DNA of 64,000 bases. It comes from a virus. Lineage: Duplodnaviria > Caudoviricetes. The notes under the pieces were generated by a model that was not told the origin of the DNA, did not search any database, and was given only the letters and a program-made list of their open reading frames with translations. The stretch lies in IMG/VR virus record IMGVR_UViG_3300037010_001838. One strand, 5' to 3'. A program made the position numbers and the translations under genes. Positions 3,912 through 31,887 of the stretch are shown one piece after another; within the stretch, counting starts at the first letter, position 1; each line of letters opens with the position of its first letter.

Positions 3912-6767
3912 CTAATTAACTTTTGCTTTTAACACTTCAATTTCAGCAGATAATTCTTTAACCGCTTCAATAAGAAGTGCAACCATACGCTCGTATTTAA
4001 CCGCTTTGTAACCATCATCCCGATCGACCACAATTTCTGGCATCACAGCCTCAACTTCCTGTGCGATTACGCCAACGTCGTGTTTACGAATAAAGTAACC
4101 GTCTTCACCTCCATGAGACTCGATGAAATCTTCTGTCCAATCATACGTAACACCGTTAATTAACTTGACCTTAGCAAGAGCATTTTCGATTGGTTTTATG
4201 TTTTCCTTTAAACGAGAATCCGAGGAATAATAAGCTGTCACATTATTAGTAGCACGAATCTCACCAGCCGTGCCTGAACCTGCTGTTCCAACACCCAAAC
4301 TATTCATTTGGTAGTTGTTGCCGGTGTTGAGCGCATTCGCTGTCGAGGCCGTTGTTGCAGTAGCAGCATTTCCAGTTGTGTTTTGGTTTAATATTGGGAA
4401 ATTTGTTAATGATGCAGCACTCCCCGTTGGTAACAAATAATCTGTTCCTGCTATGGCTATTGATGGTACGCCTGTGGTTGTTGTGTTTTTCAACAATCCG
4501 GTTGTTAACCCAGATAAAGCCGTCCCATTTATTTTTGTTACTGTTGCTGTTAAGACTCCAGTACTCCCAGAAGCTGTAACGTCACCTGAAATAGAAATTG
4601 TTTGGTCACCTGTATTAGTTCCACTTAAATTAGCGACTGCACTATTTGCTAACATTGTATTCGTAATTGCACCAGTACCGATAGACGTTGCATTTCCTAC
4701 TGATGTAACTACTCCTGTTAAATTGGCGTTAGTGGTGACAGTAGCTGCATTTCCTGTAATACTAATACCCCACGTCCCAGAAGCTCCAGTTCCTGTTAGT
4801 GTAGGTGCGTATGTTGAATTAATATCAGTAATTCCATAACCAGCAACCGTTGTTGGAATTGAAGTTAAAGAACTGAATGCAGGAGTGATTGTTACGTTGG
4901 CACCCGTTCCTGTAACAAGTCCTTTGGCGTTAACTGTTATTGGAGTAACTGCCGTTGCACTATTATTATACGTACCAGCTGTTACACCCGAACTAGTTAA
5001 TGTTAAAGCTGCTGTTACGTTTGTGCTTCCATCAAATGATACTGACCATGCTCCATCACCTGTTGCGGAAATTGTTCTTGCTGTTGCTAGTTTTGTTGCT
5101 GTTCCCGCATTTCCTGTTGTGTTTTGATTTAATGTTGGAATGTCTGCTGCAACTATTGCACGTAATGATGGAGTTCCCGTCGAACCGTTTGGTGTTGCAA
5201 GGAAATAATTAGCCGTTGTAGATCCCAGAGCAGATGTAACATCACCACTCGTTAATGTTACAGAACCAGTTCTCGTATTAAATGAATTAACAGTAGCTGG
5301 ATTACTTCCACTTGTAACACGACCGTATGAATCTGTCGAAACACTCGTGTATGTGCCAGAAGTTCCAACTTTAGTTAATGAAACTTGGGCTGCTGTTGAT
5401 GTAGAAGGTGTTGTTCCATCAACTGTTAGCATTAATCCGCCACCAGAATATACGTCAACACCAACCTCGTCTGTTGGGAGTTCAGCAATACCTGCACCCA
5501 ATTGAATATTAACTGTATTTCCTGTATTTGCTAAACCTACTCCCCAAGTATACAAAGCCCCACCAGTAAACTCTGAAAATGTAACTGTATCAGTTCCTAC
5601 AGTTACCACAGTTGCTGTTTCTGTCCAACCAGAACTTTGATATAATGTTCCTTCTTTTACAAAGACTGCAGAACCATCAAATTCACTGGCTAAATTCATA
5701 TCTAAAGCACGTGTCCATGCACCTGTTCCAGCGATATAAATTCCGTTTTCTTTTGGTAATGTTTGATCTTTAACGAGAACTCTGTCACCTGCAACGGTTG
5801 TAACACCATCTACCGCAATGAGTCCTCCTGTGGTAAGGTTTATATTTGTAGTCGATGCTACTCGAACAGCAGATTTCCACGTGAGACCGTTAGTTGCCGC
5901 ATCAACGTAATTTTTATTTGCAGCATCTGTTCCACCTGTAGGAGAAGGAAGTCCTGTTACCGTATGAACTCCATCAAAAACAAAATTACCTGTGATAGAA
6001 TCTCCAACTTTATTAGCAGGAGTATATCCAAGAGTTGTTGTTATATCAGAAGAAGTTACTGTTGTTGTTCCTGTTACTCGTCCAAACCCATCTGCGGTTA
6101 TCTTCTTGAAAGAACCAAGACCAGAATCTGTAATAGTTGCAAGGTTGAGTGTAACGGCTCCCGTAGATGCACTTGCTGTAATATTACCAGCCGTTCCTGT
6201 AACTGACGTTACACCTGTTGAGGAAGTTAAATATGTGTTTGTGTCAAGCACCCATGTATTTGCGGCAGTTTTCTTTAAAAGACCACTTGTTCCAGCAAGT
6301 CCAGCAATTGAAGTTAAGTCTCCGTCTAGTGGCTGTCCATCCGTTATTCCGTAACCCGATAATGTTGTGGGTTTGCTTGTTATTCCACTGAATGGAACAG
6401 CAGAAGCTGTGGTGGCGTTTCCTGTAATACTAATACCCCAAGTTCCTGAAGTCCCTGTTCCTGTCAATGGAGCATACGATGCAACAGAGTTATCAACATA
6501 TTGTTTAGTTGCTGCTTGGAGATTCGTTGTTGGGTCAGCATTCAACACAAGATAACCAGTCATTGTTCCGCCAGATTTCAATATGAATGATGTGGCGTCA
6601 GACGTGTTCAACAAATTCCACGTAGAACCATCATACACATGAAGTCCCACGCTAGTTTTGTAAAACAATTCTCCTACATTAGGAACAAGCGGAAAACTTG
6701 CTCCACTTTCAATCGATGCGTTTAGAATATGCGAACCTTCGTTGAGTGTAATACCATCAAATAACAT
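3912..6767 (-). CDS. Long tail fibre protein with C-terminal intramolecular chaperone (peptidase S74)
   Basis: Gly/Thr/Ala-rich fibre repeats, AATKQYVD motifs; SDSRLKENIKPIENAL...GVIAQEV...LIEAVKEL. Confidence 0.9.
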   Translation of the reverse strand: MLFDGITLNEGSHILNASIESGASFPLVPNVGELFYKTSVGLHVYDGSTWNLLNTSDATSFILKSGGTMTGYLVLNADPTTNLQAATKQYVDNSVASYAPLTGTGTSGTWGISITGNATTASAVPFSGITSKPTTLSGYGITDGQPLDGDLTSIAGLAGTSGLLKKTAANTWVLDTNTYLTSSTGVTSVTGTAGNITASASTGAVTLNLATITDSGLGSFKKITADGFGRVTGTTTVTSSDITTTLGYTPANKVGDSITGNFVFDGVHTVTGLPSPTGGTDAANKNYVDAATNGLTWKSAVRVASTTNINLTTGGLIAVDGVTTVAGDRVLVKDQTLPKENGIYIAGTGAWTRALDMNLASEFDGSAVFVKEGTLYQSSGWTETATVVTVGTDTVTFSEFTGGALYTWGVGLANTGNTVNIQLGAGIAELPTDEVGVDVYSGGGLMLTVDGTTPSTSTAAQVSLTKVGTSGTYTSVSTDSYGRVTSGSNPATVNSFNTRTGSVTLTSGDVTSALGSTTANYFLATPNGSTGTPSLRAIVAADIPTLNQNTTGNAGTATKLATARTISATGDGAWSVSFDGSTNVTAALTLTSSGVTAGTYNNSATAVTPITVNAKGLVTGTGANVTITPAFSSLTSIPTTVAGYGITDINSTYAPTLTGTGASGTWGISITGNAATVTTNANLTGVVTSVGNATSIGTGAITNTMLANSAVANLSGTNTGDQTISISGDVTASGSTGVLTATVTKINGTALSGLTTGLLKNTTTTGVPSIAIAGTDYLLPTGSAASLTNFPILNQNTTGNAATATTASTANALNTGNNYQMNSLGVGTAGSGTAGEIRATNNVTAYYSSDSRLKENIKPIENALAKVKLINGVTYDWTEDFIESHGGEDGYFIRKHDVGVIAQEVEAVMPEIVVDRDDGYKAVKYERMVALLIEAVKELSAEIEVLKAKVN

Positions 6768-11965: not shown

Positions 11966-12099
11966 CCAACTTAAATTGGAAAAAATCATCCTTCCCTCAA
12001 CACACATATATTATACATCATACGCATAGCAAAGTCAACTGTTTACTTTTATTTCAAAGGTGCCCTATCGCCATAGAGCACCTACAACATTATAACTAT

Positions 12100-12408
12100 C
12101 TACAAAGGAATCTTGATACAAAGTTTGTCGTAGGGTCCATGACCATAATACGAATGAGCCTCAAACCAATACACTTGACCAGTTACTCCATGATTGGACA
12201 ACAGTTGTTCAACTTCTTGTTTGATATGTGCCTTGATCTTTTCAGGAACCTTACAATTGAACTTCGAATACGGTACCTTTGAATATGGTACCCTCGAATA
12301 CGATACCCTTCGATGGGTCACACCCTTGTCGTTGTATGTACTGTAAACATCCCAACCATAGCTACTACAAATGGTACGAACTTCTTTATGAAAAGTTATA
12401 TTGGACAT
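12100..12408 (-). CDS. Hypothetical early protein
   Basis: ORF with own promoter and SD. Confidence 0.7.
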   Translation of the reverse strand: MSNITFHKEVRTICSSYGWDVYSTYNDKGVTHRRVSYSRVPYSKVPYSKFNCKVPEKIKAHIKQEVEQLLSNHGVTGQVYWFEAHSYYGHGPYDKLCIKIPL

Positions 12409-30590: not shown

Positions 30591-30910
30591 GCCCCGATGG
30601 TGAAATAGGTAGACACAAGGGATCGCATGACGCTAGTCCCCCTCAATTGGAAACTTTGAGTAAACTATGGGTTAATTCGGGAGAGCCTTTAAAATGGCAA
30701 TCGCGAGCCAAGCAAGTGATACATCACTTGAAGGTGTAGAGACTACTGGAGAGGTTTAGTCCTCTTAATAACCAGCTTTGAACGCCCATTACCTGACCAA
30801 ATGATGTTGAAGGTAAAGAGATAGTCCGGGCTTGAAGGAAACTTCGAGACACAACCGCTTAAAATCCCTCGCTTTCGAGCGTGCCAGTTCAAATCTGGCT
30901 CGGGGCACCA
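30591..30910 (+). tRNA. tRNA-Leu(UAA) interrupted by a group I intron
   Basis: Exon 1 GCCCCGATGGTGAAATAGGTAGACACAAGGGA; exon 2 CTTAAAATCCCT...TCGGGGCACCA. Confidence 0.85.
30623..30857 (+). mobile_element. Group I self-splicing intron, ~235 nt, no ORF
   Basis: Core elements GGCAATCGCGAGCCAAGC, GAAGGTGTAGAGACTA, GGTAAAGAGATAGTCC; IGS AGTCCC; GAAA-capped P9; terminal G 30857. Confidence 0.85.
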
Positions 30911-31027: not shown

Positions 31028-31065
31028 GTGAACTACCCAATTACTTTAGCAATTGGGTAGTTCAC
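31028..31065. repeat. IS200/IS605-like palindromic end remnant
   Basis: GTGAACTACCCAATT-ACTTTAGC-AATTGGGTAGTTCAC; related inverted copy at 59168. Confidence 0.6.
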
Positions 31066-31143
31066 AAGATTGCCGGATATAGTGACCAAAACTTTTTGTT
31101 GACTTTATAAATAGATTGCTATAAAATGTATATATAGTGTGTG

Positions 31144-31279
31144 TAGTAAAGAATGTTAGGTTTTGGGCTGCAATCCAAAACTAATGTGAGGTAATAAGAT
31201 TGGCCAGTCGAATTACCCAAGGCTACAGGCAGCGCACCGTCGCTGTCGGAGGTTTCGATTCCTCTTACATTCTTTACTA
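31144..31279 (+). ncRNA. tRNA-like multibranched RNA of unknown function
   Basis: Perfect 13-bp closing stem 31144-56/31267-79; T-arm-like GAGG-TTTCGATT-CCTC; three internal hairpins; directly after a promoter. Confidence 0.5.
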
Positions 31280-31356
31280 AATACATTTTTGTGTATTTCA
31301 GAAACTCAGTTGAGACGTTTATCGGGAACATCACCCCGAATCTGAAATACCTTTTT

Positions 31357-31429
31357 GCAGGAATAGCATATTGAATGCGTTAGGGGTCCACCTTAAAGAA
31401 GTTGGTTCAATCCCAACTTTCCTGCTCCA
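31357..31429 (+). tRNA. Atypical tRNA-Gly(UCC)-like (G at position 33)
   Basis: GCAGGAA/TTCCTGC-T-CCA; loop GGTCCAC. Confidence 0.55.
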
Positions 31430-31443
31430 TACATAGTATTATT

Positions 31444-31519
31444 GCGGTGTTAGCTCAGTAGGTAGAGCGCGATCCTTCCAAGTTCGAGGCCGTCGGTTCG
31501 AGACCGACACACCGCTCCA
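31444..31519 (+). tRNA. tRNA-Gly(UCC)
   Basis: Canonical cloverleaf, CTTCCAA loop, TCCA end. Confidence 0.92.
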
Positions 31520-31534
31520 AAATAAAATAAAATT

Positions 31535-31790
31535 AAAGTGCCTTCATAGCGAAGGTCTGATATAAAGGAACGATAAACGATATAGCCACTGCCATGGACT
31601 GTCAATAATCGTTCGCTCTGGCAGGAGAAAGAGGCTAACCTTTTCGTTGAGGTGAACCCTCCAGACTGGTCGCTATGAAGGTGCTTTAATAACTCAGCAC
31701 GACGTGCGCTGGCAGACATGGAAACCAACTCGAAAGAGCGCTGGTAAACCCATAGTGGATTGGAAACACAGGCCAATCATTTCTGAGTTA
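31535..31790 (+). ncRNA. Candidate large structured ncRNA
   Basis: 18-bp stem 31535-52/31670-87 plus 31554-59/31662-67; several GAAA-capped hairpins; no sense ORF. Confidence 0.5.
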
Positions 31791-31810: not shown

Positions 31811-31887
31811 CGGATATTAGCGCAGCCTGGTAGCGCATTTGCTTTGGGAGCAAAGGGTCGTAGGTTCGAATCCTACATGTCCGACCA
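31811..31887 (+). tRNA. tRNA-Pro(UGG)
   Basis: CGGATAT/ATGTCCG-ACCA; TTTGGGA loop. Confidence 0.92.

Follow-up and report, generated by a model that had tools for sequence, protein, structure and literature searches.

The window analysed here is a stretch of 64,000 nucleotides of DNA from a large, AT-rich phage (38% GC overall). The closest record is 179 kb long, 52% complete and 96% identical across the tRNA cluster, and the metagenomes carrying this phage's stretch come from microbial mat and sediment. Within the cluster, an initial annotation had described positions 31535-31790 as a single structured RNA of ~250 nt, which is not borne out. Because its two halves, D1 and D2, occur separately in other genomes, the stretch is two separate structured RNA genes on the + strand, arranged end to end. 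The main features of the locus are the following.

31099-31127, + strand: sigma70-like promoter (10/12 consensus match), the likely, inferred start of the tRNA/ncRNA transcript with D1 and D2.
31444-31519, + strand: tRNA-Gly(TCC), upstream neighbour of D1; D1 also lies 3' of tRNA-Gly(TCC) in the relative L108.
31532-31690, + strand: RNA D1, 159 nt, with a long closing stem, a multiway junction and two complementary loops (folding z -5.8).
31690-31790, + strand: RNA D2, 101 nt, a three-way junction here and a widespread phage, prophage and plasmid motif (alignment A1; model R1, 109 bits).
31811-31887, + strand: tRNA-Pro(TGG), downstream neighbour of D2.

Several properties first attributed to the whole stretch are upheld. 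It is richer in GC than its flanks (41-47% versus 29-33% in AT-rich spacer bins) and contains no sense ORF of 40 aa or more. Folding of the whole stretch gives a z of -4.4, with none of 200 shuffles as stable, and only one of ~250 tiles in the window is more stable than a 256-nt tile over it; by half, D1 alone reaches -5.8 and D2 alone only -1.6. G-U-preserving changes favour the + strand. Variation among strains mostly leaves the structural frame intact: the long stem has one mismatch and one C-G pair turned into U-G, some loops are altered, and the inner stem of the P2 arm differs at two places. The proposal of a new structured RNA is sustained insofar as a scan of the window against Rfam 15 places no family over D1 or D2, even at E≤10, and covariation is strong; it applies to two genes instead of one. 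BLAST of the element and of the D1 and D2 homologues against cultured phage records returned only short matches, at E 0.5 or worse. A homology of D1 to D2 through a common 7-mer was considered and rejected as not significant (43/500 and 327/500 shuffles).

The sigma70-like site lies ~400 nt 5' of the flagged stretch, and a similar site precedes the same array in L108; a tally of such sites shows no excess over shuffles. The upstream part of the cluster contains further elements. The tRNA-Leu gene at 30591-30910 contains a group I intron (Rfam 61 bits); the counterpart tRNA genes of L108 (2176-2278, 2319-2433) carry short hairpin inserts in their anticodon arms, with no group I intron there. 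Between the tRNA-Leu gene and the second promoter lies an 18-bp near-perfect hairpin (31028-31065). A third structured RNA occupies 31138-31285 on the + strand (z -4.5), with a 22-bp closing stem, three hairpins and a tRNA-type T arm. It has no match in Rfam or phage BLAST, and its layout is nearer to T4 rnaC than those of D1 and D2, with no sequence likeness to rnaC. It is followed by a 55-nt two-hairpin element with a closing stem (31296-31349, + strand), found at the same place in L108 (~2676-2730), whose stems have changed yet still pair between the two phages. An odd tRNA with a short D loop then lies at 31358-31428 on the + strand (L108 ~2733-2806; 27.4 bits, below the cut-off). Its anticodon loop differs between the window phage and L108 while the remainder is kept, and it is possibly a non-decoding tRNA look-alike.

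D1 is defined by two lineages only, the window phage and L108, a syntenic phage reached by following a neighbouring protein to its relatives. In L108, D1 lies directly 3' of tRNA-Gly(TCC) and is followed by a T run, with no D2. The homologue (L108:2888-3049) has the same stem frame, a z of -8.4 and no Rfam match at E≤10. The parts of D1 are listed below.

31532-31552, + strand: 5' strand of D1 P1, 21 bp with 31670-31690; 19/19 paired in the window and L108, 11 pairs changed on both sides.
31554-31559, + strand: 5' strand of D1 P1b, pairing with 31662-31667; 6/6 paired in both lineages, 5 changed on both sides.
31566-31576, + strand: invariant 5' core of 11 nt, comprising the junction, the P2 5' strand and the start of an A-rich internal loop; identical in L108.
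31589-31594, + strand: loop L2 (CUGCCA), putative kissing partner of L3; identical in L108, with both closing pairs changed.
31610-31627, + strand: invariant 3' core, comprising the P2 3' strand and the P3 hairpin with loop L3 (UGGCAG, 31619-31624); 18/18 identical in L108.
31631-31661, + strand: P4, a variable arm; two hairpins in L108.

The helices named in the initial annotation are present in this fold. The 18-bp closing stem (31535-31552/31670-31687) lengthens to 21 bp (31532-31552/31670-31690), and is joined by the 6-bp continuation (31554-31559/31662-31667) and the 7-bp helix GAACGAT/ATCGTTC (31568-31574/31608-31614). The linker ahead of the 5' core is unpaired and carries 9-12-nt insertions after 31564 in strains. 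The possible pseudoknot between CTGCCA and TGGCAG (31589-31594, 31619-31624) fares less simply: each hexamer does lie in a hairpin loop, and both loops are identical in the two lineages while their closing pairs change, but the kissing pairs themselves show no compensatory change. L2 and L3 can kiss by 6 bp, and the loop identity in two lineages, without covariation of the kissing pairs, suggests that this kiss is conserved. Pairing of a D1 loop with a UGGCAG copy in D2 was also tried and is not conserved, since L108 has no D2 and a partner hexamer is missing from the vicinity of D2 in most loci. D1 patterns in IMG/VR matched only the near-identical phage and, by chance, coding sequence. D1 model R2, run across 28 loci and five records (L104, L106 and L108 not covered as whole records), found nothing past the two lineages.

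Two alternatives bear directly on the architecture of D1. One is that the complementary loops pair between molecules, so that D1 is an RNA-only building block of dimers or rings and D2 a similar module. The two 6-nt loops are invariant while the surrounding stems are rewritten, ROOL and GOLLD near phage tRNA islands assemble through kissing loops (PMC12286853), and GOLLD neighbours D2 in two loci. An intramolecular kiss would be equally plausible, however, since the P2 arm contains an A-rich internal loop; complementary loop pairs in D2 never exceed 3 bp, and both RNAs are far smaller than the cage formers. We assign this alternative little probability. The other, put forward in the initial annotation, is that one 250-nt RNA acts as a 6S-like RNA-polymerase decoy, to which the long closing stem of D1 lends some resemblance. 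This is extremely improbable: D1 and D2 occur separately, there is no 6S match at E≤10, and both D1 lineages form a branched junction with predicted kissing loops and no central bubble, the conserved letters lying in loops and junctions instead of a promoter-like duplex.

D2, by contrast with the two lineages of D1, is represented by many copies. In the window it is composed of the following parts.

31690-31697, + strand: 5' strand of D2 P1, 8 bp with 31783-31790; 8/8 pairs changed on both sides, 73% of cells paired (unrefined alignment).
31698-31700, + strand: 5' strand of D2 P2, 3 bp with 31755-31757; 100% of cells paired, 3/3 changed on both sides.
31701-31725, + strand: near-invariant 25-nt core; 22 invariant columns in A1.
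31729-31738, + strand: variable, dispensable hairpin with a GAAA loop here; other loops in most homologues, or absent.
31758-31778, + strand: D2 P3 hairpin with a variable 6-bp stem and a conserved 9-nt loop (31764-31772); 96% of cells paired, 4/6 changed on both sides.

The search patterns for D2 were built from a contig of run X3, which aligns only to 31698-31774 and is missing ~11 nt around the GAAA hairpin. The hairpin is also absent in L074. Where several GAAA tetraloop hairpins had been described in this half, there is just one true example (31729-31738), and it is the least conserved piece. The IMG/VR pattern search yielded 17 true copies among 28 matches; the 9-nt loop is present in 17/17 of the true matches and 0/11 of the chance matches. 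The invariance of the core is partly by construction, since the core was the search word, but the distant 9-nt loop and an independent 3'-side pattern (13 true copies, 13/13 with the 5' core) limit this bias. Among bacterial genomes, copies are found in Paraburkholderia dilworthii WSM3556 and Achromobacter anxifer LMG 26857, and BLAST places D2 on three Variovorax megaplasmids, including that of Variovorax sp. PBL-H6. A one-mismatch core pattern run over 401 genomes of the Paraburkholderia host family returned the known copy and five imperfect matches, those examined being without the conserved letters, which indicates that D2 is rare in bacterial chromosomes. All the other loci searched carry D2 without D1, and no Rfam family matches the D2 homologues at E≤0.5 or, in other loci, E≤2.

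Alignment A1 comprises 17 rows, 16 of them distinct, from phages and Burkholderiales prophages, and all three helices (P1, P2 and P3) covary in it. Overall, 87.7% of cells are paired and 15 pairs have changed on both sides, with a covariation score of 0.63 against 0.18 for shuffled and at most 0.18 for slid alignments. RNAalifold recovers P2 and P3 unaided, and a held-out Variovorax copy (L087) scores 90.9 bits and adds a further compensatory P2 triplet. The frame is otherwise flexible: an extra hairpin produces a four-way junction in four Burkholderiales-type copies, and the closing stem reaches ~15-25 bp in many homologues. Every copy found has one permutation and is closed by a terminal stem. 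The loops and core are unchanged across genomes of 38-59% GC. Two alternative short helices can form within the core, as can two 3-bp pseudoknots with the P3 loop, and the barely varying letters favour none of these. A coding role, through a 108-aa antisense ORF or a mini-ORF starting at A/G/U-UG in the core, was considered and rejected: the variable insert has lengths of 14, 24, 25, 26, 29 and 31, and since these fall in all three length classes, and hence all three frames, a coded peptide is excluded.

The genomic company of D2 consists of tRNAs, other RNAs and unrelated ORFs. tRNA clusters surround it in the window and in L058, L066, L074 and L078, GOLLD lies within 1-3 kb in L058 and L078, and tmRNA is part of the D2 arrays of L046 and L078. 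The distance from a tRNA end to D2 is not fixed. In L063, ~2 nt separate the start of the D2 closing stem from the CCA of a preceding tRNA-Gly(TCC)-like gene overlooked by ARAGORN. At least two more recurring RNA-like cassettes shuffle place within 350 nt of D2 in Burkholderiales-type phages, one in L061, L070 and L074 and the other in L051, L055 and L071, and they have no Rfam match. The neighbours contain no constant gene class downstream of D2, which argues against D2 being a riboswitch. In small phages and prophages, D2 occupies ORF-poor stretches of the early region or lies ahead of terminase-like genes; in lambdoid prophages it follows a repressor-like gene in the early region, and in L087 it is just 3' of a promoter-like site. 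Such positions raise the idea of a cis-acting role for D2, in which it would signal to RNA polymerase on long phage transcripts as a put-like element for antitermination or processing. We regard this as very improbable, because the window copy lies ~570 nt past the promoter and just two more tRNAs of the cluster follow it, neither long closing stems nor positions in tRNA arrays agree with such a role, and Rfam gives no match.

Some D2 arrays also contain ribozymes or sequences resembling them. A strict hammerhead lies 270-310 nt upstream of D2 in L071, the only one of 16 D2 neighbourhoods to pass the strict descriptor. Looser hammerhead-like cores adjoin D2 in L087 (~6135-6235; Variovorax sp. 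PBL-H6 plasmid 2) and L058 (~1790-1910) and fail that descriptor; in one of them, core position 4 is C and 50 nt are inserted ahead of GAAA. The array of L087 belongs to a plasmid island, ~1 kb upstream of a Wadjet operon. In L046, an HDV-like sequence (12034-12103; 34.3 bits, E 0.0013, below the family cut-off) begins at the first base after the phage tmRNA and closes a 3-kb array of unannotated structured RNAs; it is a possible theta-type ribozyme on tmRNA.

This company, and the anatomy of D2 itself, gives some weight to another explanation, in which D2, and possibly D1, belongs to a new class of self-cleaving ribozymes and cuts the long tRNA/ncRNA precursor, the active site arising when the 9-nt loop docks into the core. 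In twister-sister, the distal loop docks into the core. The size of D2, its multistem junction, invariant core and removable hairpin, and the existence of three-way and four-way variants agree with this explanation, as do the ribozymes of the same arrays (the strict hammerhead of L071, the looser cores of L058 and L087, the HDV-like sequence of L046), and the anatomy fits the criteria of Weinberg and colleagues. On the other hand, only 1/16 neighbourhoods has a strict hammerhead, D2 has only one permutation and a closing stem that would keep the cut halves together, and its distance to the tRNA end is not fixed as it is for theta ribozymes. Candidates of this kind also often fail: in the latest test by that group, 10/10 non-hammerhead motifs were without cleavage (PMC10085705). 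On balance, a ribozyme is unlikely, though it is the strongest of the alternatives.

The reading we favour, tentatively and somewhat short of an even chance, is that D1 and D2 act in trans as stable RNAs, excised from the tRNA transcript, and bind a partner conserved in their hosts. The fixed loops on free stems indicate a binding or catalytic tertiary surface instead of an antisense RNA. Trans binding is favoured because all copies are end-closed by a stem, have a single permutation and stand at no fixed distance from a tRNA end. The other stand-alone RNAs beside D2 (GOLLD, tmRNA and tRNAs) count in the same direction. Under this trans-acting reading, D1 and D2 would be transcribed with the tRNAs from the upstream sigma70-type promoter and released by processing of the flanking tRNAs. 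By analogy with T4 species 1 and 2, they may then persist as stable RNAs because the closing stem locks their ends. In D2, the stems free in sequence would form a scaffold holding the invariant 25-nt core against the conserved 9-nt loop, possibly with a 3-bp core-loop pseudoknot, and in D1 the L2-L3 kiss would fold the P2 arm back. The resulting compact surfaces may bind in trans a partner conserved across hosts, either a host protein or a small nucleotide-type ligand, so that in infected cells D1 and D2 would work as sponges or decoys, with no cis-regulatory role.

Two specific partners were looked for. A TROVE/Ro60 gene is present in 0/5 D2-carrying records, three of them complete, although a Ro60 may be encoded by the host; and in comparisons with E. 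coli rRNA for complementarity or mimicry, the longest matches are no better than those of shuffles. Against the binding reading, a length of ~100 nt, a multistem junction, an invariant core and a removable hairpin also describe self-cleaving ribozymes. What the near-unchanged core in many unrelated phages, prophages and a megaplasmid points to is an undescribed binding or catalytic job. A bolder and rather doubtful version would make D2 either the first member of a new class of small catalytic RNA (self-cleaving or RNA-processing) or a phage RNA that soaks up a nucleotide signal of the host. D2 would then move as a mobile cassette within arrays of phage RNA genes, its carriers ranging from giant lytic phages through lambdoid prophages to a megaplasmid, and D1 would be a second, unrelated class of kissing-loop RNA. 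That very different phages conserve D2 at the level of letters implies that its partner or chemistry is important and fixed. D2 is unusually tractable, at ~100 nt with a covariation-defined scaffold, a near-invariant core and copies in named bacterial strains.

The motifs of D1 and D2 are absent from Rfam 15 and from the literature searched, and their sequence strings are also absent from the HRIMA supplement; D2 could be among the 8,495 unannotated IMG/VR candidate RNAs of PMC10690425. The D1 architecture resembles that of the lysine riboswitch aptamer, which has a four- or five-way junction and a long P2 arm whose loop kisses the P3 loop by 6 bp. It differs in having no Rfam match at E≤10 in either lineage, a P3 of just 3-4 bp, a P1 of ~20 bp that cannot switch, and no downstream gene to control. 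A likeness to c-di-GMP-I, ZTP and lysine riboswitches was rejected, none of these having an Rfam match. D2 resembles twister-sister and other small self-cleaving ribozymes in plan, with a three- or four-way junction, a conserved distal loop and a conserved core. Unlike the small self-cleaving ribozymes, it has no Rfam match, and none of the known core sequences is recognised in it. The hammerhead descriptor finds nothing in a span of the window that covers both RNAs and runs from 600 nt ahead of the D2 core to 700 nt past it.

Theta (minimal HDV-like) ribozymes are similarly small structured RNAs directly after phage tRNAs, defined by cleavage no more than 5 nt from the tRNA 3' end (PMC10879173). 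In contrast, D1 starts 12 nt after its tRNA, the distance for D2 is not fixed, and both are closed by a terminal stem. Neither has an HDV-family match, though the same type of scan detects one elsewhere, in L046. GOLLD (RF02032) and ROOL, likewise structured and of unknown function, occur close to tRNA islands of phages and prophages and have kissing loops (PMC12286853). Their length is several times greater, at 659 nt for ROOL env-120 and >800 nt for many GOLLD RNAs, and D1 and D2 have no Rfam match. T4 species 1 and 2 (rnaC and rnaD) differ in sequence, their local alignment scores with D1 and D2 being reached by 26-172 of 200 shuffles, and rnaC ends in a tRNA-type T arm that D1 and D2 lack. 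They are likewise two small non-tRNA RNAs, of 139 and 119 nt, set end to end in a phage tRNA cluster, as D1 and D2 are co-oriented non-tRNA genes inside one. T4 species 1 and 2, GOLLD and ROOL are examples of RNAs with no known job in phage tRNA islands, and D1 and D2 are new families within these tRNA-island RNAs of unknown function.
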